A stretch of DNA of 64,000 nucleotides from Burkholderiales bacterium (lineage in GTDB: Bacteria > Pseudomonadota > Gammaproteobacteria > Burkholderiales > SG8-39): contig DASPWT010000112.1 in NCBI GenBank assembly GCA_035637655.1, forward strand, positions 176-64,175, read 5' to 3'. The first letter of the stretch is position 1. The number at the start of each line of letters is the position of its first letter. Below, one piece after another: positions 3 to 47,388 of this stretch. The position numbers were made by a program, and so were the translations under genes. The notes under the pieces were generated by a model. It was not told the origin of the DNA. It worked only from the letters and a program-made list of their open reading frames with translations, and did no database searches.

Positions 3-542
3 GACGGCGACCTCTGGCAATGGCACCAGGACTACGGCACCTGGAAGAACGACGACCTGATGCCCGAGGCTCGCGCGATGAACGTCGCGATCTTCCTCGA
101 CGAGGTCAACGAGTTCAACGGACCGCTGATGTTCATTCCCGGCAGCCACAAGCTCGGCGTGATCGAAGCCGATCACGACACCTCGACGACGAGCTATCCC
201 CTGTGGACGATCCACCACGACACGATCAGAAAGCTCGTCGAGCGCGGCGGCATCGTGGCTCCAAAGGGTCCGCCGGGGTCGATGATTCTGTTTCACTCCT
301 GCCTGGTGCACGCCTCTACTGCCAATCTCTCTCCTTGGAATCGGGTCAGCGTCTATTTGAGCCTGTGCGCGGTGTCGAACCACATACGGCGCTTCAAGCG
401 TCCGGGGTACATCGCGCACCGCGATTTTGCGCCGTTGAAGTGCCTCCCCGACGATTGCCTGCTCAGGCCCTACGACGTGCCGCTTCCGTGGAGAGACGGA
501 ACGCCGCCGGAAGAGCTGCAAGGCGCGCTCAAAGCCGCGTGA
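3..542 (+). CDS. Phytanoyl-CoA dioxygenase (PhyH)-family Fe(II)/2-oxoglutarate oxygenase, 5'-truncated by the window edge
   Basis: The frame is open from the window edge to TGA at 540-542. WHQD (HxD iron ligands) is at codons near nt 21-32 and a distal His is in SCLVHAS. ORF-track 60..542 is the internal-Met part. Confidence 0.7.
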   Translation, partial: DGDLWQWHQDYGTWKNDDLMPEARAMNVAIFLDEVNEFNGPLMFIPGSHKLGVIEADHDTSTTSYPLWTIHHDTIRKLVERGGIVAPKGPPGSMILFHSCLVHASTANLSPWNRVSVYLSLCAVSNHIRRFKRPGYIAHRDFAPLKCLPDDCLLRPYDVPLPWRDGTPPEELQGALKAA

Positions 543-1897
543 ATCTGTACGCAAAGCTCCGGGAGCGCGAAGCGCAAGGCAGGCCGCTGCGGGTCGGCAT
601 GATCGGCGCAGGCAAATTCGGCGCCATGTACATCGCGCAGGTGCCGAAGACGCCGGGGGTGCATCTGGTCGGTATCGCCGACCTTTCTCCCGCGAATGCG
701 CGGACCAGCCTCGAGCGCGTGGGCTGGAAGCCGGAACAGTACGCTGCCGCGTCGCTCGATGCGGCGCTGAAGGAGCGACGGACGCACATTTCGGAGGACT
801 GGCGCGCGCTCGTCGCGCACCCGGCCGTGGAGATCGTCGTCGAAGCCACGGGCAATCCGATCGCCGCAGTCGAGCATGCGCTCGCAGCATTCCGAAACGG
901 CAAGCACGTGGTGATGGTGACGGTCGAGGCCGACGCCTTCTGCGGGCCCTTGCTCGCGAAGAAGGCGAAGGAGGCGGGAGTCGTTTACAGCCTCGCCTAC
1001 GGCGATCAGCCCGCGATCATCTGCGACCTCGTCGATTGGGCGCGCGCGGCGGGATTCCCGGTGGTTGCGGCCGGGCGCGGGCACAAATGGCTGCCGCACT
1101 TCGCGCAGTCCACGCCGGAGACCGTATGGGGTTACTACGGCCTCACGCCCGAACAGGCCCGCGTGGGCGGACTCAACCCGAAGATGTTCAATTCCTTTCT
1201 CGACGGCTCGAAGCCGGCGATCGAAGCCGCCGCGGTGTGCAATGCAACCGGCCTTACGCCGGCGCCGGAGGGTCTCGCGTATCCGCCTGCGTCCATCGAA
1301 GACCTGCCGCTGGTGATGCGGCCGAAGGCCGAGGGCGGGCAGCTGCATCACAAGGGGCAGGTCGAAGTCGTGTCCTCGCTCGATCGCGACGGGCGGGCGA
1401 TTCCCTACGACATCCGCTTCGGCGTGTGGGTCGTGTTCGAGGGCGAGTCCGATTACATCCGGCGTTGCTTCATGGAGTACGGCGTGCGAACCGATCCTTC
1501 GGGCCGCTATGCCTCGATGTACAGGCGCTGGCACCTGATCGGGCTCGAGGTCGGAATTTCGGTGGCCTCGGTCGGATTGCGGGGCGAGCCGACCGGCTGC
1601 GCCACGGATTTTCGCGCGGACGCGGTTGCGACGGCCAAGCGCGATCTGAGGGCGGGCGAGATGCTCGACGGCGAAGGCGGATATATGGTGGTGGGCAGGC
1701 TCATGCCAGCCGCGGATTCGCTCGCGCTCGGTGGGTTGCCGCTCGGCTTGGCGCACCAACTGAGGCTAGTCAATCCCGTCAAGGCCGGCCAGGCTGTGCG
1801 CTGGGCTGATGTCGCCTACGACGCTGGGGCCGAGGCGGTGCGTGTGCGCCGCGAAATGGAGTCGATGTTCGTCGCCCCCAGACAGCGCACGGCCTAG
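539..1897 (+). CDS. NAD(P)-binding oxidoreductase with C-terminal SAF domain (COG4091-like, homoserine-dehydrogenase-like fold)
   Basis: GTG at 539 overlaps the upstream TGA (GTGA). It has a Rossmann motif VGMIGAGKFG and a C-terminal SAF-like segment AKRDLRAGEMLDGEGGYMVVG. The first ~170 codons of ORF-track 20..1897 overlap the PhyH frame and are rejected. Confidence 0.7.
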   Translation: MNLYAKLREREAQGRPLRVGMIGAGKFGAMYIAQVPKTPGVHLVGIADLSPANARTSLERVGWKPEQYAAASLDAALKERRTHISEDWRALVAHPAVEIVVEATGNPIAAVEHALAAFRNGKHVVMVTVEADAFCGPLLAKKAKEAGVVYSLAYGDQPAIICDLVDWARAAGFPVVAAGRGHKWLPHFAQSTPETVWGYYGLTPEQARVGGLNPKMFNSFLDGSKPAIEAAAVCNATGLTPAPEGLAYPPASIEDLPLVMRPKAEGGQLHHKGQVEVVSSLDRDGRAIPYDIRFGVWVVFEGESDYIRRCFMEYGVRTDPSGRYASMYRRWHLIGLEVGISVASVGLRGEPTGCATDFRADAVATAKRDLRAGEMLDGEGGYMVVGRLMPAADSLALGGLPLGLAHQLRLVNPVKAGQAVRWADVAYDAGAEAVRVRREMESMFVAPRQRTA

Positions 1898-1961
1898 GAG
1901 GCGAGGCCCTGTGCCGGAAATGTAACGAATTGGGATTCCTCGCAATTTTCCGCCAAATATA

Positions 1962-2041
1962 GTGTAATTGGACCTAGACCCGAGAGCGCAGGCTGGGATA
2001 CTGTAATCGGGGGCCTGGACCCGAGAGAGGGCAGGCAGGGA
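1962..2041. repeat. Two imperfect ~39-bp direct repeats in the promoter region of the rpfG-like gene
   Basis: gtgtaattggacctagacccgagagcgcaggctggga (1962-1998) aligns with ctgtaatcgggggcctggacccgagagagggcaggcaggga (2001-2041). Shared blocks are TGTAAT and CCT(A/G)GACCCGAGAG. A third TGTAA occurs at 1921. Confidence 0.6.
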
Positions 2042-2075
2042 GCCGCCATTCAAAGGCGGGGCAAGGGAATTTCTT

Positions 2076-3188
2076 ATGAAAACCACGTCGTCTAGACCGC
2101 TTACGCTGGTTCACGATTCGATCGAAGCCAAGCTCGCGCCGCTCAAGATCCTGGTCATCGACGACCAGTCCACCGGGCGCATCGTGCTGAGCGAGATCAT
2201 GAGGAGCCTCGACGCGAGTCTGGAGGTTGCCACGTTCGCCGACCCTTTGGAGGCCATCGAATACGCGCGCAAGCACCCTGTCGACATGGTGCTCACCGAT
2301 TACAAGATGCCGAACTTGGACGGTATCGAGGTCATCCGGAGGCTGCGCCGCATTTTCGGCTACGAGGACGTTCCGATCATCTGCATCACGGTGGTGAACG
2401 ATCGCGAAGTCCGCTACCGTGCCCTGGAGGCCGGGGCCACCGACTTCCTGATTCGCCCGATCGACCGGCTCGAATGCGGGGCGCGCTGCCGCAATCTCCT
2501 GAGCCTGCGCCGGCATGAAATTCTCAAGAAAAACAGAACCCGGATTCTCGAGCAGAAGATCGACGAGGCCACCCGCGAGTTGCGGCGCCGCGAAGTCGAG
2601 ACGCTGTTTCGGCTGGCGAAGGCCGCCGAGCAGCGCGACAAGGTGACCGGAATGCACCTGGTGCGGATGGCCAAGTACTCCGCCCTGATCGCCAAAGGCG
2701 TCGGGCTGTCCTTGGCTGAGCAAGATGCGATCGAGCTGGCCGCGCCGATGCACGATATCGGAAAAATCGGCATTCCGGACCGGATCCTGCAGAATCCCGG
2801 AAGGCTCGACGGCGAGGACCTGCGAGTCATGCAGTCGCATGCGCGCATCGGCTACGACATGCTGAAGGACAGCTCTTCCGGATATCTGCAAATGGCCGCG
2901 GTGATCGCGCTCGGCCATCACGAGAAGTACGACGGCAGCGGTTACCCGACCGGCCTCAGGGGCGAGCACATTTCGCTCGAAGCGCGAATCGTCGCCATCG
3001 CGGATGTCTACGACGCGCTCACCTCGGTTCGCCCCTACAAACCGGCTTGGCCCGTGGAGGAAGCGTTCGTCTACATGGCGGAGCACGCCGGCAGGCATTT
3101 TGATCCGAAGCTTGTGGAAATCCTGGTGCGGAACCGAGACGAAGTCCTCTCCATCGGCGAACGGTTTGCCGATCAGCTGGCGCAGTGA
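2076..3188 (+). CDS. rpfG: Response regulator with HD-GYP c-di-GMP phosphodiesterase domain (RpfG-like)
   Basis: It has a receiver domain (DMVLTDYKMPNLDG) and an HD-GYP domain (HDIGKIGIPD ... GHHEKYDGSGYP). Confidence 0.85.
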   Translation: MKTTSSRPLTLVHDSIEAKLAPLKILVIDDQSTGRIVLSEIMRSLDASLEVATFADPLEAIEYARKHPVDMVLTDYKMPNLDGIEVIRRLRRIFGYEDVPIICITVVNDREVRYRALEAGATDFLIRPIDRLECGARCRNLLSLRRHEILKKNRTRILEQKIDEATRELRRREVETLFRLAKAAEQRDKVTGMHLVRMAKYSALIAKGVGLSLAEQDAIELAAPMHDIGKIGIPDRILQNPGRLDGEDLRVMQSHARIGYDMLKDSSSGYLQMAAVIALGHHEKYDGSGYPTGLRGEHISLEARIVAIADVYDALTSVRPYKPAWPVEEAFVYMAEHAGRHFDPKLVEILVRNRDEVLSIGERFADQLAQ

Positions 3189-3204
3189 CCCGGAACCGGG
3201 CCGG

Positions 3205-5724
3205 ATGGCGCTGAAATCGATCTTCGCCGGCCTTCGAGCGCGCCTCGCCGCGCGCCCGGACACAGAGCACGAGCAGGCGATCGTCCGGCTGGTGGTGTAT
3301 TCCGTGCTGTTCCTGTATCTGCTGCCGCAGGCTTTCGGCGGCATCGAAGTCCGCAACGAAGTCAACCCGCTGTTTTTCTCGGCCATGATCTGCTTCATGG
3401 TGCTAGCGGCGGCCGTGTTCGGCTGGATCTGCCTGTTTCCGTCGGCTTCGCCCGTGCGCCGCGTTACCGGGTCTTTGCTCGACGTCGTCGCGACAACGTT
3501 TTTCATGTACAACCTAGGCGTGTACGGAACGCCCTTTTACGTCGTTTATCTCTGGATTATCTTCGGCAACGGCTTCCGTTACGGCAAGGCGTATCTCTAC
3601 AACTCCCTGGCATGGAGCGTGGTCGGCTTCAGCTTGGTCCTCGCGGTGAACGACTATTGGGTTGCGAACCGCCCGCTGGGCATCGGCCTTCTCGCGGGCA
3701 TGATTGTGTTGTCGATGTATGTTGGGAAGCTGGTGAAGCGGCTGTTCGATTCGCTTCACCGCGAGGAGGCCGCGAATCAGGCGAAGCGACGTTTCCTCTC
3801 CACGGTAAGCCACGAGATGCGCACCCCGCTCAACGCGATCGTCGGAATGAACGACCTGCTGCGCGACACCCCTTTGAACTCGGAGCAGGCCGAGATGGTG
3901 AAGGCGATGCACGAAGCCTCGCAATCCATGCTCAAACTGATCGAGAACGTGCTCGATATTTCCAAGATCGAGGCCGGCAAGGTCAACATCGAGGAGACCG
4001 ACTTCGACCTGCACGCCCTGATCAACGGCACCTCGGGAGTGCTCGCGCCGCAGGCCGAGATTCGTGGGCTGCAGCTTCGTACTCTCGTGATGCCGGAGGC
4101 GGCCCACGCGCTGCGCGGCGATCCCTATCATCTACGCCAGGTGCTCTATAACCTCATCGGAAACGGTATCAAGTTCACCCAGTCCGGCAGCGTCACCTTG
4201 ACCGTTTCGAGCCTGGGCGAGAGCGAGCATGCGGTGCGGCTGAGATTTGCCATCGAGGATACGGGGATAGGCATCGCGCCCGAAGCTCAGGAACGCATTT
4301 TCGAGAGTTTCGTCCAGGCCGACGACTCGACCACGCGCCGCTACGGCGGAACCGGGCTCGGAACGACGATCTCGAAACAGCTGGTGGAGATGATGGGCGG
4401 GCAGATCGGCCTGAACAGCACGCCCGGAAAGGGCAGCACATTCTGGTTTGAGCTCCCCTTCAAGAAGCAGATGGTGGGACTGGTTCCCGAAGCTTCGCTC
4501 CGGCTCAACGATATCCGGATCATGCTCCTCGGTTTCGCCGACGCGCAGCTGCAGGCGCTCGAGCAGGATCTCGCCACTTGGGGGGCGCGCACCGGGCGCG
4601 CAGCGGGCGTAGAGGCGGGGGCTGCGCGCCTCGCCGAGGCGCAGTCGCTCGGGCACCCCTACCACTTGGTGCTTCTGCGCGAAGACGCGCAGGTCGAACC
4701 GAACCGACTTCTCGCTCGCCTCCGCAATAGCCGCAGCCAGAAGGCGCCTCCTACGGTCCTGTGCACGCCCGGCGTATCGCAGATTCGCAGCGCCGAAGCG
4801 CTTGCGGGCGGTTTCGTGGCGGTACTGGAAATGCCGCTAGAGAAGCGGCTCCTCTTTAACGCCATCCATTCGGCCACTGCGGTCCAAGCGAGCCAGGAAG
4901 GCGTCATTTCGCTCAGCAATTACTACGCCGCCCGCGACGCCAACCGGCGCCGCTACCAGATCCTCGTGGCGGAAGACAACGCGGTGAACCAGCGCGTCAT
5001 CGTCGGGATACTGGAACGCGCCGGGCACAGAGTCCGGGTCGTGGACGACGGGGAGCAGGCGCTCGATGTCCTCGAGAACGAGCGGTTCGATGTGGTCATC
5101 ATGGATCTCAACATGCCCGAGCTCGGCGGGCTGGACGCCGCGCGGGCCTACCGCTTTATGGATCCGGAGGCGATACAGGTCCCGATCATCATGCTTTCGG
5201 CGGACGTCACCTCGGAGACGATGAAGGAATGCGAGGAGGCGGGGATCGATGCTTTCTTGTCCAAACCGATCGAGGCTCGCCGCCTGCTTGACACCATCGC
5301 GAGCCTGATTGCAAAGCGCGCGACCGCTCTCGCGGCGTCCGGCGACGGCGCCGAGAAAACCCAGGTGGTCATCAATCCGGCGACGCTCTCGGAGCTCGAG
5401 CTCATCAGCGCGGATAGCACCTTCATGCCGGAACTCCTCAACGGATTCATCCAGGACGGCGAGGCGCTGCTGCGGCAGATGGAAGCCGCAGTGGCGGCGG
5501 AGCAATACGAGACGCTCAGGGACCTCGTGCACGCCATGAAGGGCTCGGCGGTTACGCTCGGCGCCGAGCAGCTGTGCCAGACCTGCGTCGGAATCAGCGG
5601 TCAGACGACATCGGAACTGCAAGCGGGCGGATCACGCGCCCTAAAGGTGGTGCGGGAGCAGTTTCAGCAGACGCGCGCTTCGCTCCTCGATTATCTCAAG
5701 AAAAACCAGAGCGCGGCCCGCTGA
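3205..5724 (+). CDS. rpfC: Hybrid sensor histidine kinase, RpfC-like (multi-TM input, HisKA, HATPase, receiver, HPt)
   Basis: ATG at 3205 (MALKSIF) lies 16 nt after the rpfG stop. There are about five hydrophobic helices, then the H-box SHEMRTPLNAI, GTGLGTTISKQLVEMMGG, a receiver DVVIMDLNMPELGG and an HPt HAMKGSA. The ORF-track start at 3004 overlaps rpfG and is rejected. Confidence 0.85.
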   Translation: MALKSIFAGLRARLAARPDTEHEQAIVRLVVYSVLFLYLLPQAFGGIEVRNEVNPLFFSAMICFMVLAAAVFGWICLFPSASPVRRVTGSLLDVVATTFFMYNLGVYGTPFYVVYLWIIFGNGFRYGKAYLYNSLAWSVVGFSLVLAVNDYWVANRPLGIGLLAGMIVLSMYVGKLVKRLFDSLHREEAANQAKRRFLSTVSHEMRTPLNAIVGMNDLLRDTPLNSEQAEMVKAMHEASQSMLKLIENVLDISKIEAGKVNIEETDFDLHALINGTSGVLAPQAEIRGLQLRTLVMPEAAHALRGDPYHLRQVLYNLIGNGIKFTQSGSVTLTVSSLGESEHAVRLRFAIEDTGIGIAPEAQERIFESFVQADDSTTRRYGGTGLGTTISKQLVEMMGGQIGLNSTPGKGSTFWFELPFKKQMVGLVPEASLRLNDIRIMLLGFADAQLQALEQDLATWGARTGRAAGVEAGAARLAEAQSLGHPYHLVLLREDAQVEPNRLLARLRNSRSQKAPPTVLCTPGVSQIRSAEALAGGFVAVLEMPLEKRLLFNAIHSATAVQASQEGVISLSNYYAARDANRRRYQILVAEDNAVNQRVIVGILERAGHRVRVVDDGEQALDVLENERFDVVIMDLNMPELGGLDAARAYRFMDPEAIQVPIIMLSADVTSETMKECEEAGIDAFLSKPIEARRLLDTIASLIAKRATALAASGDGAEKTQVVINPATLSELELISADSTFMPELLNGFIQDGEALLRQMEAAVAAEQYETLRDLVHAMKGSAVTLGAEQLCQTCVGISGQTTSELQAGGSRALKVVREQFQQTRASLLDYLKKNQSAAR

Positions 5725-5764
5725 GGCAGGGACGTGACATGGACAAGGGACGGCGCGAGAAACC

Positions 5765-6028
5765 ATGGCTGACTTGTCACTGCGTGACCGAGTAATTCAG
5801 CGTCTTCTGGCCGCATCCGATGCAAAACTCACCGCGGCCGACGTAGACGACGCGACATCGCTTCGACAGGATCTGGACATCAGTTCACTGATTTTGATCA
5901 CATTGGCTTCCGAGCTGGAGGATGAGTTGGGGATAGACATCGACGATGAGGACCTTGGCCGCATACAGACGATCGGCGATCTTTTCAAGGCGATCGAGAG
6001 CAGGAAGCGGCAGAATCGGCAGGCGTGA
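5765..6028 (+). CDS. Acyl carrier protein (second, non-housekeeping copy)
   Basis: An 87-aa acidic protein. The helix-II region DLDISSLILITLASELEDELG carries the Ser expected for 4'-phosphopantetheine. Its stop overlaps the next start (GTGA at 6025-6028). Confidence 0.75.
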   Translation: MADLSLRDRVIQRLLAASDAKLTAADVDDATSLRQDLDISSLILITLASELEDELGIDIDDEDLGRIQTIGDLFKAIESRKRQNRQA

Positions 6029-7293
6029 CGCAGTCTGAGTCAATGACTCCTCGGCGAGTAGCAATCACGGGAGTCGGTCTCGTATCGTGCCTTGGGCACG
6101 ATTACAGCCAAGTGGTGAGGGCTCTCCAAAACGGGGTAAGCGGCATCCGCGCCATGCCGGAGTGGGAAAACCTGGGCCTGAAGAGCCGGGTGGCGGGTAC
6201 GATCCTGGACGTCGAGGCCAAGTTCGAGTGCTCGCCCATCCCGAAAAAACTGCGTCCCGCGATTTCGGAAGCATCCAAATACTGCTGCCTCGCCGCGCTC
6301 GATGCCATCGGCGATTCCGGGCTTTCCGAGGTCGACCTGCAGTCCGACAGAACGGCGTGCATCGTCGGTACGGGAATCGGAAGCGTGGGATCCACCTATA
6401 CGACAGGGCGACAGCTCTATTCCGGAGAGATTGCGAAGCTCAGCCCGCTTGTCGTGCTGAAAAGCATGGCCAGCGCGTCGAGCGCGGCGGTGGCCAACCT
6501 GCTCAAGGTCCACGGACGCAGTTATTCGATCAGCTCTGCCTGTTCGACGTCCTCTCACAGCATCGGCACGGCATACGAGCTCATCCGTTACGGCATCGTC
6601 GACCGTGCCATCGCAGGGGGCGGAGAGGAGGTGCACCCTATGATTGCCGCGGGTTTTCAGGCCCTTCGATTCGCGCTCGCCACGAAATTCAACGAGTGCC
6701 CGCAACGGGCGTCGCGCCCTTATGATGTCGCGCGCGACGGGTTCGTGATCGGGGGTGGTGCGGGGATCGTCGTACTCGAGGCCTGGGACCAGGCGTTGGC
6801 GCGTCGGGCTCGCGTGCGCGCCGAGATCGTCGGGTTCGGGACAAGCTCGGATGGTTTCGACATGGTGATGCCGGAGCCGACTGGGGTGCACGCCGCCAAG
6901 AGCATGCGCAACGCCATAGAAGGCAGCGGTATGAGTCCTCGAGACGTCGGTGCCGTCAACACGCACGGCACGGCGACTGCCAAAGGTGACGTCGCTGAAG
7001 TCGAGGCAATGAAGGAAGTGTTCGACGGCAAACCGCCGCCGTTCTCATCGACAAAATCGATGACCGGCCATCCCCTGGGTGCGGCCGGAGCACTGGAGAC
7101 GATCTTTTGCATAGGCATGCTCGAGCATCGCTTCATTGCCCCTTCCATCAACATCGAAGAACTCGATCCTGAATTCGCGGGATTGCCGGTCGTAACGACC
7201 CCCAAGTTCACGGAACTGGACACCATACTTTCCAATAGTTTCGGATTCGGTGGAACCAACGCGAGCCTTCTATTGAAGGCATTTCGCAACTAG
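6025..7293 (+). CDS. Beta-ketoacyl-ACP synthase I/II-type (elongating KAS, Cys-His-His), second copy
   Basis: Motifs are ISSACSTSSHSIG (active Cys), NTHGTATAKGD, KSMTGHPLGAAG and [13 protein letters not shown]. It is translationally coupled to the upstream ACP. Confidence 0.85.
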   Translation: MTQSESMTPRRVAITGVGLVSCLGHDYSQVVRALQNGVSGIRAMPEWENLGLKSRVAGTILDVEAKFECSPIPKKLRPAISEASKYCCLAALDAIGDSGLSEVDLQSDRTACIVGTGIGSVGSTYTTGRQLYSGEIAKLSPLVVLKSMASASSAAVANLLKVHGRSYSISSACSTSSHSIGTAYELIRYGIVDRAIAGGGEEVHPMIAAGFQALRFALATKFNECPQRASRPYDVARDGFVIGGGAGIVVLEAWDQALARRARVRAEIVGFGTSSDGFDMVMPEPTGVHAAKSMRNAIEGSGMSPRDVGAVNTHGTATAKGDVAEVEAMKEVFDGKPPPFSSTKSMTGHPLGAAGALETIFCIGMLEHRFIAPSINIEELDPEFAGLPVVTTPKFTELDTILSNSFGFGGTNASLLLKAFRN

Positions 7294-7488
7294 CGCGGCG
7301 TGTTTCATTCGAGCGCTTCTGCGCATCGCCTGGGTTCCTCCATCAGGCTTGGGAACAAGACTCGCTGCGCATGAGCCCCACCGGGGCGCGTCCTAACGCA
7401 CCGGTCGGGACGGATCGGATCCGGCCCCGGCAGGTCATGGCTCAAGCGCGCGAGCGCCCATGCTTCGGGCGGACATGCACAGCCGGGC

Positions 7489-8430
7489 TCAGGCCGTCGC
7501 GTACCGCAGTTCCTCCGCCATTCCTGCCACCTCCGGTATCTCCGCCGCGCCGCCCGGGATACGCCGGAATTGGGACCGCGCCAAGCGGCTCATCATCTTG
7601 AGATCTCTCTCTTCCAGCCGCGTTGCAGCGTCGACCCAGACGTTGGTGATATTGAGCATCTCCTCGTAGCTCACCCGTTGGAAATGCTGGCGGCAGCTGA
7701 ACACGGCCTGCATACCATTGCGGTGTCGCTCGTTGCGGCGGATGTATTCGCGTACCGCCGTCTCCCCGTTTCCGTCCTCGACGAGAACGTCCACTACGCC
7801 CATCTCGTACAACTCCTCGGCGGTGTAGATGCGGCCGGAAAGAATCATTTTCTCGGCACGCTTCATTCCGAGCCGCCGGCTGAGCAGGCTGTAGGCTCCC
7901 ATGCCGGGGAAGAGGTTGAACAGGATCTCGGGCATTCCCATGCGCGCGCGGCGCTCGGCGATGATCACATTCGAGGAAAGCGCTGTCTCGAAACCTCCGC
8001 CGAGAGCTTCACCTTGCACCAGGGAAATCGTAATCAAGGGGCCGTTGTAGTTGCAGATCCTCGAATACATGTTGTCGATGCAGAGCTTAGCGTAATGCAT
8101 CAACGCATCGCGGTCCTGAGATTTCACCAGCTGCACGAACAGCGCCAGATCCCCTCCCAGGTTGAACACGTTCTCGGTCTTGGAGGCCACCACGTAATAG
8201 CGGATCTGGCGGAGCTCGCCCTTGTGCAGGAGGCGCCCGCCGTTCGCTTCGATCGCCGCGTCGTGGGCCCGCAACTCGTCGAGCAGCCCGAGATTGAAAC
8301 ACGGTACTCCAGACGGATTCAGGTAGGTCCATGCTACAGCGTCCTCGGGATCGAACCTGACCTCGATCTGCTTGTAGTAGTCCCGTTTAAACATTCCCTC
8401 TATCGCTCTTAATTCGACCGGTGCGTTCAT
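7489..8430 (-). CDS. rpfF: DSF-family signal synthase, RpfF-like crotonase (enoyl-CoA hydratase superfamily)
   Basis: Blocks VFNLGGDLALF, LVQGEALGGGFETALS, GMPEILFNLFPGMGAYS and ITNVWVDAATRLEERDLKMMSRLARSQ match my recollection of Xanthomonas RpfF. The two Glu (GGGFE and MPE) are 20 residues apart, as for RpfF E141/E161. A strong RBS AGGAAGGAAG precedes the ATG. Confidence 0.8.
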   Translation of the reverse strand: MNAPVELRAIEGMFKRDYYKQIEVRFDPEDAVAWTYLNPSGVPCFNLGLLDELRAHDAAIEANGGRLLHKGELRQIRYYVVASKTENVFNLGGDLALFVQLVKSQDRDALMHYAKLCIDNMYSRICNYNGPLITISLVQGEALGGGFETALSSNVIIAERRARMGMPEILFNLFPGMGAYSLLSRRLGMKRAEKMILSGRIYTAEELYEMGVVDVLVEDGNGETAVREYIRRNERHRNGMQAVFSCRQHFQRVSYEEMLNITNVWVDAATRLEERDLKMMSRLARSQFRRIPGGAAEIPEVAGMAEELRYATA

Positions 8431-8470
8431 GACTTCCTTCCTTTCAGGGTGTGTTGAAGAAAAATGCGTT

Positions 8471-8498
8471 TTTACGGACTCTTTGCGGAGACTATACT
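8471..8498 (+). promoter_or_regulatory. Candidate sigma-70 promoter facing the GGDEF gene
   Basis: TTTACG (8471-8476), a 16-nt spacer, then TATACT (8493-8498). It would give a ~195-nt leader. Confidence 0.35.
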
Positions 8499-8560
8499 CC
8501 CAAATCCATCGTTGCCCAAAAGCCCCCTATTCCATTGTCATTGGGGTCGTTTTCCTGTCT

Positions 8561-8599
8561 ATCGGGGTTTTCCCCATTTCCCCTCAGGGAAACCCCGAT
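8561..8599. repeat. Imperfect inverted repeat (hairpin or operator) in the rpfF/GGDEF divergent intergenic region
   Basis: atcggggttt(t)ccc (8561-8574) pairs with gggaaaccccgat (8587-8599), giving 13 bp with one bulged T and a ~12-nt loop. Confidence 0.55.
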
Positions 8600-8698
8600 G
8601 GGCCGGGTCGAAAATGTGTGAAAAAGTCGGCATTCAGCCTTGGCAGCCGCAGGCGCGGCATGCGTCCGGGGTAAGGGCTGCGCCGGTCGAGCCGTAAA

Positions 8699-10297
8699 AT
8701 GGCGAAACTAAAAACCCGCGCTCGCATCTTCGTTCTGGTGATTCTCGCGGCCTTGCCGGCACTGCTGCTCACGGTCTACAGCGCGATCGAGCGGCGCGCT
8801 TCGACGGAAAACCAGGCGCGCGCGGAGCTCGGGCGGCTCGTCAAGCTGGCGGCCATGCAGCAATGGCAAGTCGTGGAGGGTGCCAGGCAGATGATGGTCG
8901 CCTCTTCGCAGATTCTCTTCACGTTGCTGAACGACAGAAGGCGCTGCACCGAGTATTTTGCGAGCTTGTTGGCGCAAAACCGGGAAACGTACCACTCGAT
9001 GGGTCTTTTTCGCTCGGACGGCCAGCTGTTCTGCAATGCTGCGAGTTGGCGGGACAAGGTCTATAGCGGGGATCGGCTGTATTTTCGACTTGCCAAGGAA
9101 ACGGGTCGATTCGCGATCGGCGAATATCAGGTCGGTCGCGTCACGGGACAAGCCGGAATCAACTTCGGATTTCCCGTCAAAGACGCGGATAACAAGGTCT
9201 ACGCCGTGGCTTTCGCGGGGCTCGATCTGGAGAATCTTGGTCGCATGGCCGAAGCGACGCCTTTGCCGCCCGAGGGTATTTTGAGCGTCGTCGACGTCAA
9301 GGGAACCATCCTCGCGCGCAAGCCCGCGATGAAAGAGCGCATCGGTGAAAGGCTTTGGAATCCGCAGGTGATCGAGGCGGTGCTCGCAGGCAGGGAAGGC
9401 GTGCTCGAGGCCAAAGGAGAGGACGGAATCGACTGGCTGCTGGCGCACGAGGTCGTCACCCAGAATCCGGACGGCGCCTTTCCGCTTCGCGTCATGGTTA
9501 CCGTTCCGCTCACCCGGGTGTTTGCCGAGGCGAACAGGGCGCTTGTCCGAGATCTGCTGGGCATCACCTTAGCCACGCTGTTTCTGCTGGTCGGAGTCTG
9601 GTACGGCGCCGAGTGGTTCGTGTTGCGTAAAGTCAGGGCGCTGCTTCGGGCCGCCGACCGGGTGCGTGGCGGCGACCTGAACGCCAGAACGGAAATTCGC
9701 TATGGCGGAGAAGAGCTGAGCCAGCTTGCACAGGCCTTCGATGCCATGGCCCAAGCCCTTCAGCAGCGGGAGCAGAAGCTCCAGGAGCGAGCGATCTCCG
9801 ACCCGCTCACCGGCCTGTATAACCGGCGCTACCTGAGCGAGTTTCTTCCGCGCGAGCTGGTGCGGTGCAGGCGCAGCGCGACGCCGGTCGCGGTGATGCT
9901 GATCGATCTGGATCACTTCAAGCGCGTCAACGATTCTTTCGGACACGAGGCCGGGGATATCGTCCTCAAGACGATCGCGGCGCTGCTCAAAGGCAAAGTT
10001 CGCGGCAGCGACATCGCCTGTCGCTACGGGGGCGAGGAGTTCGCGCTGATCCTGCCCGAAACCAGCCTCGATGCCGCCCTGCGGCGTGCCGAAGATATCC
10101 GGCTGGCGATCGCCCGCCTCGGCCTCAGCTACGCGGGAACGCCTCTGGGTAAGATCACGGCCTCGCTGGGGATCGCGCTGTTTCCGGATCACGGCGAGGA
10201 CACCGACGCCCTCCTGCGCGTGGCGGACATGGCGCTCTATGCCGCCAAGGGCGCCGGACGCGATCGGGTCGTCGCCGGCTCGGTGGAGAAACGCTGA
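8699..10297 (+). CDS. Sensor diguanylate cyclase (N-terminal TM, periplasmic Cache-like domain, HAMP, GGDEF with I-site)
   Basis: It has a signal-anchor LVILAALPALLLTVYSA, a second TM followed by a HAMP-like segment, and RYGGEEF with RGSD exactly 5 residues upstream (RxxD I-site). Confidence 0.85.
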   Translation: MAKLKTRARIFVLVILAALPALLLTVYSAIERRASTENQARAELGRLVKLAAMQQWQVVEGARQMMVASSQILFTLLNDRRRCTEYFASLLAQNRETYHSMGLFRSDGQLFCNAASWRDKVYSGDRLYFRLAKETGRFAIGEYQVGRVTGQAGINFGFPVKDADNKVYAVAFAGLDLENLGRMAEATPLPPEGILSVVDVKGTILARKPAMKERIGERLWNPQVIEAVLAGREGVLEAKGEDGIDWLLAHEVVTQNPDGAFPLRVMVTVPLTRVFAEANRALVRDLLGITLATLFLLVGVWYGAEWFVLRKVRALLRAADRVRGGDLNARTEIRYGGEELSQLAQAFDAMAQALQQREQKLQERAISDPLTGLYNRRYLSEFLPRELVRCRRSATPVAVMLIDLDHFKRVNDSFGHEAGDIVLKTIAALLKGKVRGSDIACRYGGEEFALILPETSLDAALRRAEDIRLAIARLGLSYAGTPLGKITASLGIALFPDHGEDTDALLRVADMALYAAKGAGRDRVVAGSVEKR

Positions 10298-10343
10298 GCC
10301 CGGTCGCTTTGGAAGGAACTGCGCGCCGGCGCGGCCAGGAGCG

Positions 10344-10571
10344 TCACTTGTAAATTTGCTGGTTCCCGGAGGCGTTTCGGCGATCGTCTTCCCACGCCCC
10401 CCGGCTGACTCCCTGAACGGCGGCAGGGCTGTTCGACGGCAGTCTACTGCCGGTGGTGTAGACGGGTTCGCTGCGCGGCTGCGCCGCGGCTTTAGGTTCA
10501 GTGGGCGTCGTCTCGCAGCCGTAAGTTGCGGTGCACAGAACGGAAGCGATCAACAGCAGGCGGATGCGCAT
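10344..10571 (-). CDS. Small secreted protein or lipoprotein (75 aa)
   Basis: ATG at 10571 is preceded by GGGAGG. The N-terminus MRIRLLLIASVLCTATYGC looks like a signal or lipobox sequence. It is the only credible part of the 770-aa ORF-track entry 10344..12656. Confidence 0.5.
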   Translation of the reverse strand: MRIRLLLIASVLCTATYGCETTPTEPKAAAQPRSEPVYTTGSRLPSNSPAAVQGVSRGAWEDDRRNASGNQQIYK

Positions 10572-10645
10572 TTCTTGGACCTCCCATTCGTTGAAATACC
10601 GCGCCAGTCTACCTCGTCGGTCCAGGCACATACAATCGAGTCGAG

Positions 10646-10721
10646 TGGCTCCCCGACCAGGGCTCGAACCTGGGACCTGCGGATTAACAGTCCGTCGCTC
10701 TACCAGCTGAGCTATCGGGGA
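10646..10721 (-). tRNA. tRNA-Asn (GTT)
   Basis: The reverse complement tccccgatagctcagctggtagagcgacggactGTTaatccgcaggtcccaggttcgagccctggtcggggagcca folds as a cloverleaf with a 7-bp acceptor, a TTCGAGC T-loop and an encoded CCA. Confidence 0.9.
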
Positions 10722-10913
10722 TTCGAGACTCCGACGAGCGCGTTGCCGGAGATTGGAAGGCGCGTATTCTAATTCCCCGCGGGGGGACCGGTCAACGCGA
10801 CGGATCGAAGAAAAGCCGCTCCGGCCCTCATTTTCCCGGGCGGTGCAGACGCGACCCATGCCTCTTGGGCATAATGGATCCGTGAACGCCGCCGCACGGA
10901 AGGAGACGCACCG

Positions 10914-11909
10914 ATGAGTCCATCGCGTGAGAGGGCATGCCGTTGTGTCGCGGGAGCGTTGGGACTGGCTTTGAGCTTCGCGTCCACCGCTTCGCTCGCT
11001 CAGGAACCAGGCGTGTGGCCCGCCCGGACGATCCAAATCGTCGTTCCCTATACTCCGGGCACGGGCGCCGACATCCTCGCGCGGATCTTCGGACCGAAAC
11101 TTGCCGAACGCTGGAAGGTCGGCGTCGTCACCGACAATCGCGCGGGCGCTTCGGGCAACATAGGAACCGACTTCGTCGCGAAATCGGCGCCCGACGGCTA
11201 TACGCTGCTTTGCACCGCGACCTCCTTCGGAACCAATCCTGCGATCAATCAAAAGCTCCCATTCGACCCTATAAGGAGCTTTAGGCCAGTCATATTGCTT
11301 GCCACCAGCACGATGGCGGTGATCGTCACGCAAGGGTTGGCGGCCAGGTCGATGCGCGAATTCCTCGACCTCGCGCGCGGCCAGCCGGGCAAGCTCTATT
11401 ACTCTTCTCCCGGAAACGGAGGTCCGCAGCATCTCGCCATGGAGCTGCTCAAGCTCGACGCGCGTATCGACCTCGTGCACGTTCCGTACAAGGGATCGGG
11501 CGGCGCACTGACCGATCTGGTGGGCGGGCACGTCCAGGCCATGATCGTGTCGCTGCAAACGGCGGCTCCGTACGTCCAGAGCGGGAAGCTTCGCATGCTG
11601 GCTGTGATGAGCGCGGAGCGCTCGCAGGCGTTTTCCGAGGTGCCCACCCTCAAAGAGCTGGGCCTCGCCGACCTCGAGGTGGAGACATGGTACGGCGTGT
11701 TCGCGCCGGCGGGGACGCCGCAGGCGGCCATCGCCAGGGTCAACGCGGAAATGAACGCGCTGCTCGAACAGAATGAGATCCGCGAGCTTCTCGCAAAACA
11801 GGGCATGGCGCCGGCCGGCGGCACGCCCGAGCGCTTCGGCGGCCTGGTGAAGAGGGAATTGGCGCGCTGGTCGCGCGTGGTCACGGCCGCGGGCATCAAG
11901 GCGGACTGA
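10914..11909 (+). CDS. Bug-family (TctC-like) tripartite tricarboxylate transporter substrate-binding protein
   Basis: A signal peptide ending ASLAQE is followed by the family-typical RTIQIVVPYTPGTGADILAR, then YSSPGNGGPQHLAMELL and VPYKGSGGALTDLVGG. Confidence 0.8.
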   Translation: MSPSRERACRCVAGALGLALSFASTASLAQEPGVWPARTIQIVVPYTPGTGADILARIFGPKLAERWKVGVVTDNRAGASGNIGTDFVAKSAPDGYTLLCTATSFGTNPAINQKLPFDPIRSFRPVILLATSTMAVIVTQGLAARSMREFLDLARGQPGKLYYSSPGNGGPQHLAMELLKLDARIDLVHVPYKGSGGALTDLVGGHVQAMIVSLQTAAPYVQSGKLRMLAVMSAERSQAFSEVPTLKELGLADLEVETWYGVFAPAGTPQAAIARVNAEMNALLEQNEIRELLAKQGMAPAGGTPERFGGLVKRELARWSRVVTAAGIKAD

Positions 11910-11948
11910 GCTCAAGCGGATTCCACGGATCACCCGACAAGAAAACAC

Positions 11949-12662
11949 ATGAGCCATATCGAAGACCTGGTCGCCGCGTACCGAATCCTCGCCGAGCACG
12001 GTGTCATCGACGCGTACGGACACGTGAGCGTGCGTTCGGAACGCGACCCCCAGCGTTACCTTCTGTCGCGCTCGCTTGCGCCGGAATTGGTGATGCCCGA
12101 GGACATCATGGAGTACGACCTCGACAGCAATCCGATCGATCCGCGGGGACGAGAGTCGGTGCGCGAGCGCTTCATTCACGGCGAGATCTTCAGGGCGCGT
12201 CCGGACGTGAACGCGGTCGTGCACAATCATTCCCCTTCGGTCGTGCCCTTCAGCGTCACGACGGTCGCGATGCGGCCGCTTTTCCACATGGCTGCGTTCG
12301 TGGGAGAGGGGGTCCCGACCTTCGAAATCCGCGATGCCGAGAAGGGCACCGATCTGCTGGTCAAAACGCCCTATCTGGGGCAGGCGCTCGCCAGGACATT
12401 GGGAAGGTCCCCGGCGGCCCTGATGCGCGGGCACGGTTCGGTTACCGTGGGCGAGAGCCTGCCCCGCGCCGTGGGGCGCAGCATCTATCTGGAAATGAGT
12501 GCGCGAATGCAGCTTCAGGCGATGGCGATCGCGGGGACCGGCGGCAAAATCACCTACCTCGACGAACAGGAGGTCCGGGCCTCCGTACCCGGGCAGGATT
12601 ACAATCGCGCCTGGCCGATGTGGCGCGCCCATGCGCTCGCCCGCCTCAAACCGCAAGCATGA
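11949..12662 (+). CDS. Class II aldolase/adducin-family protein
   Basis: Contains HGHVSVR-like DAYGHVSVRS, HGEIFRARPDVNAVVHNHSP and LMRGHGSVTVG (metal-binding His pattern). Confidence 0.7.
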   Translation: MSHIEDLVAAYRILAEHGVIDAYGHVSVRSERDPQRYLLSRSLAPELVMPEDIMEYDLDSNPIDPRGRESVRERFIHGEIFRARPDVNAVVHNHSPSVVPFSVTTVAMRPLFHMAAFVGEGVPTFEIRDAEKGTDLLVKTPYLGQALARTLGRSPAALMRGHGSVTVGESLPRAVGRSIYLEMSARMQLQAMAIAGTGGKITYLDEQEVRASVPGQDYNRAWPMWRAHALARLKPQA

Positions 12663-13869
12663 GCCACGCGGCTTCGCGCGGCACGATCCGCCCTTGAGCT
12701 TTCAACGCCTCGCCGACCAGCTCGCCGAATTGGAGCGCCGCGGCCTGCGCCGCAGTCGCCTTGTGCGCCAGAGCCCGCAGGGGCCGCGCATCGTCGTGGA
12801 CGGGCAGGAGGTCCTTGCGTTCTGCAGCAATGACTACCTGGGGCTCGCCAACCATCCGCGGATCGTGGAGGCGGCGATCGAGGCCGCCTCGCGCCACGGG
12901 GTCGGGGAGGGTGCCTCGCATCTTTTGAGCGGGCACAGCGTCGTCCACGAGCGCCTCGAAGCGAAACTCGCCGAGTTCATGCAAATGCCGCGGGCGCTGC
13001 TTTTCTCCACCGGCTATCAGGCAAACATCGGTGCCGTTACCGCGCTCGCCGGCCCGGAGGATGCGATTTTCTCCGACGCGCTCAATCACGCCTCGCTGAT
13101 CGACGGCGTGCGCTTGTCGCGCGCCCGGGTGATTCGCTACCCGCACGCCGATCTCGGGTTCCTGTCGGGAGCGCTGGCAGAATCCAGCGCAAGAACGAGA
13201 CTGATCGTCAGCGACGGCGTATTCAGCATGGACGGCGACATCGCGCCGTTGCCGGCCCTGCTCGATTTGTGCGAACGCCACGATGCCTGGCTTCTGGTCG
13301 ACGACGCGCACGGCTTCGGCGTGATCGGCCCCGGAGGCCGCGGGTCGCCGGCGCACTTCGGCTTGCGCTCGCCGCGCCTCGTCTACGTCGGAACGCTCGG
13401 CAAGGCGGCGGGCGTGGCGGGCGCTTTCGTCGCGGGCGCCGCGGAAGTGGTGGAAACGGTGCTGCAGCGGGCGCGGACCTATATCTACACCACGGCTGCG
13501 CCAGCGATGCTTGCGGCCGCGGTCGAAGCGAGTCTTCAGCTCATCCTGGAAGACGAATGGCGTCGCGAGCATCTGCGAAAGCTGATCGCGCTGCTGAGAC
13601 GGGAGCTGCAGGGGAGCGAAAGCGCGCTTGCCCCATCCGATACGCCGATTCAGCCGCTGATCCTCGGAGGGAACAACGAGGCCGTACGGGCGAGTGCGGC
13701 GCTGCACGAGCGCGGCATTCTCGTGCCTGCGATCCGTCCGCCGACCGTGCCCGAGGGTACCGCCCGGTTGCGCATCTCGCTTTCTGCGGCTCATAGCGAG
13801 CAGGAGGTTTTGCGTCTTGCCGCGGCGCTGCGTGAGGTGTGTCAAAGCGGCGTGGCGACACAGGCCTAA
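12631..13869 (+). CDS. bioF: 8-amino-7-oxononanoate synthase
   Basis: Contains FCSNDYLGLANHP, the PLP-lysine context GTLGKAAG and DDAHGFGV. The start is uncertain: ATG 12631 overlaps the aldolase by 32 nt, and TTG 12694 is an alternative. Confidence 0.85.
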   Translation: MRSPASNRKHEPRGFARHDPPLSFQRLADQLAELERRGLRRSRLVRQSPQGPRIVVDGQEVLAFCSNDYLGLANHPRIVEAAIEAASRHGVGEGASHLLSGHSVVHERLEAKLAEFMQMPRALLFSTGYQANIGAVTALAGPEDAIFSDALNHASLIDGVRLSRARVIRYPHADLGFLSGALAESSARTRLIVSDGVFSMDGDIAPLPALLDLCERHDAWLLVDDAHGFGVIGPGGRGSPAHFGLRSPRLVYVGTLGKAAGVAGAFVAGAAEVVETVLQRARTYIYTTAAPAMLAAAVEASLQLILEDEWRREHLRKLIALLRRELQGSESALAPSDTPIQPLILGGNNEAVRASAALHERGILVPAIRPPTVPEGTARLRISLSAAHSEQEVLRLAAALREVCQSGVATQA

Positions 13870-13892
13870 AGCGCTGAACGGAACGCTCGAAA

Positions 13893-14570
13893 GTGGGTCA
13901 GGGCTTTTTCGTTACCGGAACCGACACCGGGGTCGGCAAAACCCTGGTCGCCTGCGCGCTCCTGCGCGCTTTTGCCAGGACGGGGAAGTCCGTGGTGGGC
14001 ATGAAGCCGGTTGCCGCCGGACGCGAAGCGGGCCGCTTCGCGGATGTCGAAGCCCTGGCGCACGCGAGCACGGTGAGTGCAAGGCCGCAAGTCGTCAATC
14101 CCTACGCCTTCGAGCCGGCGATTGCCCCCCACATCGCGGCGGAACTGGCCGGCTTCGAAATCGGCCTCGAACCGATCGCGCGTGCCTACGAGGAGCTGTC
14201 GCGGCTGGCCGAGGTTGTCGTGGTGGAAGGCGCCGGGGGTTTTCTCGTGCCGCTCAATGCAACCCAGACCGGCGCCGATCTCGCGATGCGGCTGGGTTTG
14301 CCGATCGTGCTCGTCGTCGGGATGCGGCTCGGCTGCTTGAATCATGCATTGCTCACGCGACGGCAGATCGAGGCTTCCGGGTTGCGTTGCGCGGGCTGGG
14401 TGGCGAATTGCATCCTCCCCGACATGCCTCATTTGGAGGGCAACATCCGCGCGCTCGAGCAGCGCCTCGATTGTCCGCTGCTCGGCGTGTTGCCGTTTCG
14501 GCTCGATCCGGTCCCGGCAGAGGTCGCCCCGCTTCTTTCGCTCGAATCGCTTGTCGAGGCTACCGCGTGA
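13893..14570 (+). CDS. bioD: Dethiobiotin synthase
   Basis: GTG start. The P-loop is FFVTGTDTGVGKT, and VVEGAGG is present. Confidence 0.85.
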   Translation: MGQGFFVTGTDTGVGKTLVACALLRAFARTGKSVVGMKPVAAGREAGRFADVEALAHASTVSARPQVVNPYAFEPAIAPHIAAELAGFEIGLEPIARAYEELSRLAEVVVVEGAGGFLVPLNATQTGADLAMRLGLPIVLVVGMRLGCLNHALLTRRQIEASGLRCAGWVANCILPDMPHLEGNIRALEQRLDCPLLGVLPFRLDPVPAEVAPLLSLESLVEATA

Positions 14571-14584
14571 GCGCAAATGCAAGC

Positions 14585-15901
14585 ATGCTGGAGCGGAGCC
14601 TGCGGGCGGTCTGGCATCCCTGCACGCAGATGAAGCACCACGAAACGCTGCCGCTCGTGCCGATCAACCGCGCCGAAGGGGCCTGGCTCTACGATTTCGA
14701 GGGCCACCGCATCCTCGATGCGATCGGCTCCTGGTGGGTCAACCTGCTGGGGCACGGCGACCCCCGCATCAATGCCGCGCTACGGCACCAGCTCGATTCG
14801 CTGGAACACGTCATGCTCGCCGGGTTCACGCACGCGCCGGCAGTCGAGCTCTCCGAGCGCCTCGCGAAGCTCGCTCCCGGCGGACTCGGCCATTGCTTTT
14901 TCGCCTCCGACGGGGCCTCCGCAGTCGAAATCGCGTTGAAGATGAGCTATCACTACTGGAGAAACTCAGGCCGCGCGAAGAGCGGATTCGTGACCCTTGC
15001 CAACAGTTACCACGGCGAGACTCTGGGCGCGCTGTCGGTCACCGATATTGCGCTCTACCGCGACACCTACGCTCCGCTCCTGCGCGCCAGTGTGCAGGTA
15101 CCTTCTCCGGACTGGCGTCTGGCCGAGCCGGGCGAGACGCGAGAGGAGTATGCGCGACGCTGCGCAAAGGCGCTCGAAGAGCACCTCGAGCGGCATGCCG
15201 CGGAAACCGCCGCGCTCATCGTCGAGCCGCTTGTGCAATGCGCGGGCGGGATGGCGATGTACGACGCGGAATATCTGCGCCGCGCCCGCGAGCTCTGCGA
15301 TCGCTTCGACGTCCATCTCATCGCCGACGAGATAGCAGTGGGGTTCGGGCGCACCGGGACTCTCTTCGCCTGCGAGCAGGCGGGGATCACGCCCGATTTC
15401 CTGTGCCTCTCCAAGGGCCTCACGGGCGGCTACCTACCGCTCTCGGTAGTGCTCGCAACCGATCGCGTCTACCGGGCTTTCTACGACGACAAGCTCGAGC
15501 GCGCTTTCCTTCACTCGCATTCCTTCAGCGGCAATCCGCTTGCCTGCCGCGCTGCCCTGGCCGTGCTCGACATCCTGGAAGAAGAGAAGGTGCTGGAGCG
15601 CAACCGAAATACGGCGGCGACCCTGAACCGGCGCGCCGATAAGCTGCGCTCGCACCGGCGCGTCGCGCACTTCCGCAACACGGGAATGATCTGGGCGTTC
15701 GACGTGCGGGACGCTCAACCGGGATTTGGGCCGGACTTCTATCGAGGCGCTCTCGAGATGGGCGTACTGCTCCGGCCGCTGGGCTCCACGGTCTACTGGA
15801 TGCCGCCTTACATCATCGAAGAAACCGAAATCGACTTTCTTCTGAGCACGGTGAAAAGGCTCCTGGACGCCGGAGGGACCGGACCCGAGTCCCGGGGGTG
15901 A
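14585..15901 (+). CDS. bioA: Adenosylmethionine-8-amino-7-oxononanoate aminotransferase
   Basis: ATG at 14585 ([16 protein letters not shown]). Contains [11 protein letters not shown] and [11 protein letters not shown] (PLP Lys). The upstream part of ORF-track 13694..15901 overlaps bioF/bioD and is rejected. Confidence 0.85.
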
Positions 15902-32348: not shown

Positions 32349-32353
32349 TCGAG

Positions 32354-34032: not shown

Positions 34033-34131
34033 GAGGCGTGACCAGATTGGCTTGCCGGGAGGAAAGGCGATTCTGCTACAATTCGCACCTCCGAATTCGA
34101 TTGCAGCAAAACAAAGGGGAAGGAGCCCGCA

Positions 34132-34374: not shown

Positions 34375-34398
34375 TTTCTCCCCACGGCCGGAGTCGAT

Positions 34399-47379: not shown

Positions 47380-47388
47380 AATTCGAGA

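Follow-up and report, generated by a model that had tools for sequence, protein, structure and literature searches.

The window analysed here, a 64,000-nucleotide stretch of contig DASPWT010000112.1 (positions 176 to 64,175 of the forward strand; assembly GCA_035637655.1) from a Burkholderiales bacterium, carried near its left end a gene cluster related to the rpf loci of diffusible signal factor (DSF) signalling. The stretch was core chromosome, with uvrB, rne, a fab cluster, rpoE-rseB-degP, lepA-lepB, era, recO, pdxJ, efp, uvrC and pgsA, and all relatives came from metagenome-assembled genomes (MAGs) of uncultured soil Burkholderiales/Betaproteobacteria or from soil metagenome contigs. An earlier note, made from the letters alone, had placed a complete RpfG/RpfC/RpfF-type locus in three open reading frames (ORFs) of this region. 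The ORF listing contained all three where the note had put them, the 16-nt spacer between rpfG and rpfC was confirmed (stop at 3188, ATG at 3205), and homology bore out the predicted family of each gene. Two genes inside the same interval had been left out of that description, encoding an acyl carrier protein (ACP) and a beta-ketoacyl-ACP synthase (KAS) and lying between rpfC and rpfF (Table 1).

The HD-GYP regulator showed a Response_reg domain (1.8e-23) and an HD_5/HD domain (1.7e-35) in Pfam, with the motifs DYKMP (residue 75), HD (226) and GYP (289). Along its whole length it shared 45-47% identity with Xanthomonas RpfG, and its gene lay directly upstream of rpfC. In the kinase, the HisKA, HATPase_c, Response_reg and Hpt domains named in the earlier note were all present (Pfam). 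The protein was colinear with Xanthomonas RpfC from residue 1, with ~40% identity overall and 43% across the input domain and kinase core, and its input domain was 35% identical to RpfH, the free-standing copy of that domain. Its ~180 N-terminal residues were hydrophobic. A crude hydropathy scan gave five to six hydrophobic segments; the proposed figure of five transmembrane segments rests on homology to RpfC of Xanthomonas campestris pv. campestris (Xcc) (PMC5391125). At the extreme N-terminus, R17-P-D19-T20-E21-H-E-Q24 aligned with R15, D17, S18, E19 and Q22 of Xcc RpfC, with all five positions kept. Mutagenesis showed that these five residues of Xcc RpfC are required for DSF sensing and that S18T is functional (PMC5391125). 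The phosphorelay motifs were SHEMRTP at residue 202 (H-box), DLNMP at 634 (REC) and HAMKG at 776 (HPt), and H202, D634 and H776 aligned with conserved motifs of Xanthomonas RpfC. A longer rpfC frame starting at 3004 (906 aa, reaching into rpfG) was rejected, since neither Xanthomonas RpfC nor any relative showed homology ahead of Met 3205. The protein was longer than the 726-residue Xanthomonas RpfC, and ~110 extra residues, which Xanthomonas RpfC lacks, lay between HATPase and REC (residues ~416-577; window 4450-4935). This segment matched no Pfam family at a threshold as loose as E <= 10. AlphaFold, run on the single sequence, modelled it with a predicted local distance difference test score (pLDDT) of 36, too low to draw a conclusion from; judged by eye, it is possibly a degenerate receiver domain. 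By homology, the kinase is a predicted DSF sensor of the RpfC type.

The crotonase matched ECH_1/ECH_2 in Pfam, and all four sequence blocks quoted in the earlier note were found in its translation. The proposed glutamate pair was also found, as E148 and E168, 20 residues apart and aligned with E141 and E161 of Xanthomonas RpfF. A phmmer search of the PDB returned Xcc RpfF (3m6m, 7e-59), then 7zq7 (1.5e-57) and the B. cenocepacia RpfF structures 5fus and 6dgn (about 5e-51 to 6e-51; 5fus is described in PMC6361424), and the next match was PaaF, a generic hydratase (6e-16). The DspI type (P. aeruginosa PA0745), which the earlier note had listed for comparison, did not fit the candidate synthase, as 5wyb matched at only 1.1e-12 versus 7e-59 for RpfF. 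NCBIfam model PRK08788 scored 375 bits (cutoff 177), and the same model gave 425 bits for Xanthomonas RpfF and 397 bits for B. cenocepacia RpfF (RpfF_Bc). A neighbour-joining tree placed the protein in a betaproteobacterial clade, with xanthomonad RpfF and RpfF_Bc together as its sister group and PaaF at a great distance, so it sits with RpfF and not among the generic hydratases, the placement on which the earlier note's proposal would have fallen. Identity to Xanthomonas RpfF was 39-41%, many homologues carried the JGI label "DSF synthase", and rpfF was linked to RpfC/RpfG in dozens of genomes. A reading of the crotonase as a common enoyl-CoA hydratase from fatty-acid breakdown, standing beside a two-component system by chance, would agree with Pfam, which reports the general ECH_1/ECH_2 families only; it is extremely improbable given this linkage and the RpfF-specific C-terminal helix block, and was ruled out by the PRK08788 score well above cutoff, the E-values of RpfF structures and generic hydratases, which lie over 40 orders of magnitude apart, and the tree. 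The xanthomonad RpfF equivalog model NF053515 spoke the other way, with 233.7 bits versus a cutoff of 550; the window protein is therefore no RpfF orthologue in the narrow xanthomonad sense, and RpfF_Bc likewise fell below that cutoff (184.7 bits). From sequence, the crotonase is a member of the RpfF/DSF-synthase family with predicted activity.

Table 1. Positions of the rpf-like genes and related features in the window.
Feature	Position	Strand	Length	Basis or context
rpfG-like response regulator, REC + HD-GYP, predicted c-di-GMP phosphodiesterase	2076..3188	+	370 aa	Pfam, Xanthomonas identity
rpfC-like hybrid sensor kinase	3205..5724	+	839 aa	Pfam, Xanthomonas identity
RpfC input (predicted signal-binding) domain; divergent allele block A	3205..3800	+		Motif, nucleotide identity, dS
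ACP, putatively dedicated	5765..6028	+	87 aa	PP-binding 2.9e-9
FabB-like (KAS I type) beta-ketoacyl-ACP synthase	6025..7293	+	422 aa	Ketoacyl-synt N and C domains
rpfF-like predicted DSF synthase, crotonase fold; divergent allele block B	7489..8430	-	313 aa	PRK08788, PDB phmmer
dCache-HAMP-GGDEF diguanylate cyclase, divergent from rpfF	8699..10297	+		Pfam
tRNA-Asn; conserved right boundary of variable region	10646..10721	-		ARAGORN, Rfam
Housekeeping acpP	34132-34374			Part of plsX-fabH-fabD-fabG-acpP-fabF
Housekeeping fabF	34399-35637			Part of plsX-fabH-fabD-fabG-acpP-fabF

The earlier note had called the arrangement of these genes non-canonical, and this did not hold. In Xanthomonas rpf loci fetched using the 3m6m sequence, rpfG-rpfH-rpfC converged on rpfB-rpfF, which lay on the opposite strand. 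In the fetched Xanthomonas, Stenotrophomonas and Lysobacter loci, rpfG-(rpfH)-rpfC was convergent with rpfF and rpfB lay upstream of rpfF; loci L039, L048, L061, L086 and L093 of our comparison set (L numbers throughout) had the same xanthomonad order, and a review gives the same order (PMC4504480). Because the fetched xanthomonad loci share it, the order rpfG-rpfC convergent on rpfF in the window is canonical, and it recurred in Xanthomonadales and in some 20 Burkholderiales loci that are less closely related. The reported absences did hold: no rpfH was found between rpfG and rpfC, and a tblastn search with the acyl-CoA ligase RpfB of Xanthomonas gave no match in the 64-kb window at E <= 1e-3. 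The position upstream of rpfF was occupied by a GGDEF cyclase in place of rpfB. Compared with the X. campestris cluster, the window therefore had the same three proteins in the same order and orientation (PMC4504480), together with the Glu pair, the N-terminal DSF-sensing motif, the phosphorelay residues and HD-GYP. It differed in lacking rpfH, and the true departures from the known layout are the ACP-KAS pair embedded between rpfC and rpfF, the missing rpfB, the longer RpfC, the adjacent cyclase divergent from rpfF, and the co-varying synthase and sensor alleles described below. The RpfF_Bc (Bcam0581)/RpfR system of B. cenocepacia is similar in its PRK08788 synthase, in the convergence of synthase and sensor genes, and in c-di-GMP (cyclic di-GMP) turnover as output, but its sensor RpfR is a cytoplasmic PAS-GGDEF-EAL protein, whereas the window has a membrane RpfC kinase and RpfG. 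The genes convergent with rpfF in the window were KAS, ACP and rpfC, and the sole nearby GGDEF protein had no EAL domain, which placed the locus outside the RpfF/RpfR type.

Comparison with the nearest relatives of the window, L112 and L157, revealed a mosaic. The kinase core, ACP, KAS and the KAS-rpfF spacer were 94-100% identical to them at the nucleotide level and rpfG was 90-96% identical. The RpfC input domain (3200-3800) reached just 62-84%, rising to 98-100% from 3800 on, and rpfF was 60-88% identical to L157, L111 and L112. Synonymous divergence (dS) from L157 was 0.24 for rpfG and the flanking DRL-type oxidoreductase gene and 0.08-0.10 for the kinase core (0.10), ACP and KAS, versus 1.12 for the input domain and 0.92 for rpfF. 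The ratio of nonsynonymous to synonymous divergence (dN/dS) against relatives was 0.07-0.24 throughout and 0.18-0.24 in the divergent blocks. The two divergent blocks are, on these comparisons, probably best described as old alleles moved by recombination rather than as products of fast evolution in place. The closest rpfF (89%) and the closest input domain (86%) were both found in L124/L125, yet the kinase core there was 92% identical and no ACP-KAS was present. An independent pair without the ACP-KAS module, L124 versus L138, repeated the pattern, with dS of 0.13-0.15 in the backbone, 0.87 in the input domain and 1.30 in rpfF. Import of core-ACP-KAS in a single event was rejected for this reason and also because the sensor and rpfF were ~4x more diverged than the flanking backbone.

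Across 24 loci, input-domain distances correlated with RpfF distances (r = 0.76; partial correlation 0.71 given the kinase core, label-permutation p = 0.0002), while input-domain and core distances correlated at just 0.40. At 85% identity, RpfF fell into nine classes among these loci. The docking motif also differed: RPDTEHEQ occurred in the window, L124, L137, L139 and L116, whereas L157 and L167 had G/A-G-TEYEQ, in which the Arg and the Asp are lost, and L117, L120 and L143 had lost the Arg. Judged from these alignments, rpfF and the RpfC input domain form several old, matched allele classes that appear to recombine across a near-identical backbone. A similar linkage is known in Stenotrophomonas maltophilia, in which the RpfF and RpfC N-terminal variants of rpf-1 and rpf-2 strains are fully associated, recombination breakpoints were mapped inside the rpf genes, and horizontal exchange was inferred (PMC4517397, Huedo et al.). 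The S. maltophilia variants differ from the window lineage in several respects: two classes are known there versus many here, divergence affects the first third of rpfF there and the whole gene here, a switch between five and ten transmembrane segments occurs there while input-domain length is constant here, and the window host is an uncultured betaproteobacterial soil lineage.

Whether the matched classes carry meaning has to be weighed against a neutral origin, in which frequent homologous recombination, together with fast-evolving segments, would have produced the sensor/rpfF mosaic as a side effect. Several results lean that way and count against matched specificities. Recombination is common at the locus, with the cyclase block 99% identical to L153 and the core, ACP and KAS 96-99% identical to L112/L157. 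In addition, dN/dS was not raised in the divergent blocks, the sensor changed in the pair L157-L116 while rpfF did not, and the distance (Mantel) correlation across the 24 loci leaves shared ancestry in. Neutral recombination could be the whole explanation, and we regard it as a strong contender at somewhat less than even odds. It accounts less readily for the co-change of non-adjacent blocks in two independent pairs, in which the 1.9-3.7 kb between the blocks stays backbone-like, for the partial correlation given above, for class differences at residues without which Xcc RpfC does not sense its ligand, and for the full association of the variant pair in S. maltophilia. That the allele classes differ in signal/receptor specificity, which these docking-residue differences would suggest, is accordingly put forward as a tentative possibility that falls short of an even chance.

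The second departure, the ACP-KAS pair, stood in the position where rpfC and rpfF converge. The ACP gene began 40 nt past the rpfC stop, and the KAS gene overlapped the ACP stop by 4 nt. These spacings and the lack of a terminator-like site suggest co-transcription of acp-kas with rpfGC; the terminator scan found none after rpfC and none between KAS and rpfF. The promoter/terminator scan of 1800-10500 gave counts no higher than in shuffles, and the KAS-rpfF spacer (7294-7488) held short palindromes only. The ACP was atypical: it was recognized by the Pfam PP-binding model yet scored below every NCBIfam ACP cutoff, and it kept the Ser in a DISSL motif. The best NCBIfam match of the KAS was FabB NF005935 at 425 bits, under the equivalog cutoff of 630 and so outside that equivalog; the protein matched FabB (E. 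coli-type KAS I) in the PDB at 2e-100 with ~45% identity and had the Cys-His-His motifs (SSAC 170, HGTAT 314, GHPLGA 348). Because a housekeeping plsX-fabH-fabD-fabG-acpP-fabF cluster (30364-35637) lies in the same window and identity to it is low (29% between the rpf-linked ACP and AcpP, 36% between the rpf-linked KAS and FabF), the two genes are extra copies. A CptA-family membrane protein gene (35666-36130) followed by rpoE-rseB-degP lay 3' of this housekeeping cluster.

Besides at least 11 metagenome contigs, 13 species-level genome loci (L003, L111-L121, L123) had the arrangement rpfG-rpfC-acp-kas convergent on rpfF. Across loci with the module, KAS identity ranged from 76% to 97%, and dN/dS was 0.10-0.18 for ACP and 0.12-0.20 for KAS. 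In L001, L004, L009, L124/L125, L138, L139, L143 and others, rpfC abutted rpfF without the module, with a gap of 23-210 bp. The same "slot" held other cargo elsewhere: an XRE-type helix-turn-helix regulator in L137 (8567-9016), a second hybrid kinase (HisKA-HATPase-REC-HPt) with a response regulator in L167 (9134-12677) and L142, and, in the ~60%-identity Burkholderiales group L005-L024, a 233-aa Haem_oxygenas_2 protein, "iron-containing redox enzyme" (2.5e-18; L006:8904-9605, minus strand). The last of these might work with RpfF to modify fatty acids in the L005-L024 genomes.

A slot that is empty in L001, L004, L124 and L138 and filled differently in other loci raises the possibility that ACP and ketosynthase are passengers, a lipid or secondary-metabolite module in a recombination-prone position with no signal role. 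Three observations count against a part in DSF synthesis, the first two of them also in favour of passengers. The closest rpfF alleles (L124/L125, and L001 at 81%) occurred without ACP-KAS, so the pair is not needed by this RpfF type. The ACP was 97-99% identical across loci with RpfF just 73-76% identical, and because ACP is near-identical where RpfF differs, the two do not co-vary. Lastly, the module included no reductase or malonyl transferase gene. A passenger origin has, in our estimate, a sizeable minority chance. Against it stand the tight, operon-like spacing behind rpfC, where the scan gave no terminator, an immediate neighbour, RpfF, that is ACP-dependent, a position kept under purifying selection over the range of KAS identities given above, and a pair that comes without accompanying biosynthetic genes. 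RpfF uses 3-hydroxyacyl-ACP, and its broad thioesterase drains acyl-ACPs, a drain that RpfB offsets in Xanthomonas (PMC4504480). Our literature search, with incomplete coverage, found no ACP or ketosynthase inside rpf clusters. Predicted from gene content and position, service of the ACP-KAS pair in DSF synthesis has a nearly even chance, if slightly below it.

The right flank of the locus was variable as well. The diguanylate cyclase next to rpfF had GGEEF, an RxxD I-site and a dCache-HAMP input, with no EAL domain. It adjoined rpfF in L001, L115, L117-L120, L133, L134 and L153 and was absent in L111, L124 and L157. From ~8500 to ~10800, including the cyclase and tRNA-Asn, the window was 97-100% identical to the metagenome contig L153; the cyclase was 99% identical while rpfF was just 83%. 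On the tRNA-Asn side, a conserved block of ~160 bp was common to L001, L002 and L004. The cyclase gene is either a recent transfer or a presence/absence polymorphism beside a tRNA gene, and it is putatively linked to the rpf system. Two reading frames in this region were rejected: orf81 (8429-8674) had no Pfam match and ~50% amino-acid identity versus ~80% DNA identity and was treated as rpfF/cyclase intergenic sequence, and the ORF at 10344-12656 (minus strand) was judged spurious, having no Pfam match and overlapping tRNA-Asn and the TctC and aldolase genes.

Some further observations concern the surroundings and the comparison records. The DRL-type oxidoreductase gene with a SAF domain (20-1897, plus strand) lay directly upstream of rpfG and was kept there across the lineage (L004, L009, L114-L121 and L124); a PhyH dioxygenase gene lay further upstream in L124. 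In the ORF at 13694-15901 (plus strand), the class-III aminotransferase domain covered only residues 316-723 of 735 aa; there is either an unmatched N-terminus of ~300 residues or a true start further downstream. A 606-aa ORF at 46465-48285 (minus strand) matched none of the Pfam families at E <= 1e-5; its GC content at third codon positions (GC3), 0.72, was coding-like. The titles of records L059, L096, L115 and L118 suggest mislabelling or contamination: xanthomonad-type rpf loci stood on a scaffold titled "Nocardiopsis yanglingensis" and on a MAG contig titled "Thermoanaerobaculia", and two "uncultured Enterobacteriaceae" MAG contigs had the Burkholderiales-type locus described here.

Taken as a whole, the region most probably represents a working RpfC/RpfG/RpfF (DSF-family) quorum-sensing locus with ACP-KAS and matched alleles, to which we assign a probability of roughly 80%; presence of the core DSF system by itself is very likely. 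The functional statements on the window locus are drawn from homology. In the proposed mechanism, RpfF would dehydrate 3-hydroxyacyl-ACP to cis-2-enoyl-ACP and then release a free cis-2-unsaturated fatty acid by hydrolysis. This acid would bind the short N-terminal sensor and the membrane input domain of RpfC, which would autophosphorylate and pass phosphate through His202, Asp634 and His776 to the REC domain of RpfG, and the HD-GYP domain of RpfG would then lower c-di-GMP. The ACP-KAS pair, probably co-transcribed after rpfC, would be an accessory precursor module that builds a 3-oxoacyl chain on a private carrier for reduction by the host FabG. It may supply RpfF with substrate or determine chain length while keeping the housekeeping acyl-ACP pool out of reach of the RpfF thioesterase; such protection would parallel the role of RpfB in Xanthomonas, for which no counterpart was found in the window. 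The recombining rpfF/input-domain classes would likely give different signal/receptor specificities.

Instead of producing a signal, the locus might mainly listen, with RpfF held inactive by RpfC or acting as a regulator or thioesterase while the cell responds to fatty acids of its neighbours. Such a mode has been proposed for the rpf-2 strains of S. maltophilia, which make DSF only when given exogenous DSF, and the REC domain of RpfC sequesters RpfF in Xanthomonas. However, the catalytic Glu pair was intact, rpfF was under purifying selection, and a private ACP-KAS makes little sense beside a silent synthase, which leaves a mainly listening locus improbable. A broader proposal goes beyond the working quorum-sensing locus itself: soil Burkholderiales would share a multi-"dialect" fatty-acid quorum sensing built of exchangeable cassettes of rpfF and the RpfC input domain, each defining a private signal/receptor pair. 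A plug-in slot between rpfC and rpfF, filled by ACP-KAS in the window, by the haem-oxygenase-like iron enzyme in relatives or by nothing, would alter signal chemistry, and loci with ACP-KAS would make a private-carrier product of the DSF family outside the known cis-2 acids. We consider this full version rather unlikely.

In staphylococcal agr and Bacillus comQXP, old recombining alleles are limited to the signal gene and the signal-binding part of the receptor, and the kinase core is conserved. The window locus would resemble these pherotype systems in working principle without belonging to them, as their signal is a peptide and that of the window locus is predicted to be a fatty acid. Our search of the literature, incomplete in coverage, found nothing pairing "diffusible signal factor" with "pherotype". 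To our knowledge, work on DSF signalling has dealt almost exclusively with xanthomonads and pathogenic Burkholderia, in which the synthase uses the general fatty-acid pool. If the proposed role is true, a private ACP and ketosynthase in an rpf operon would be the first case of precursors supplied specifically for a signal of the DSF family, and would offer a way to learn what determines its chain length and identity. The allele classes already differ at experimentally defined ligand-docking residues, and many old classes, restricted to the synthase and to the part of the receptor that binds the ligand, would make it possible to see whether private dialects of fatty-acid signals can arise in complex soil communities. 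Both the precursor-supply and the dialect questions can be approached by heterologous expression, so that culture of the organism is not needed. A multi-dialect system, if real, would be the fatty-acid counterpart of the agr or com pherotypes.

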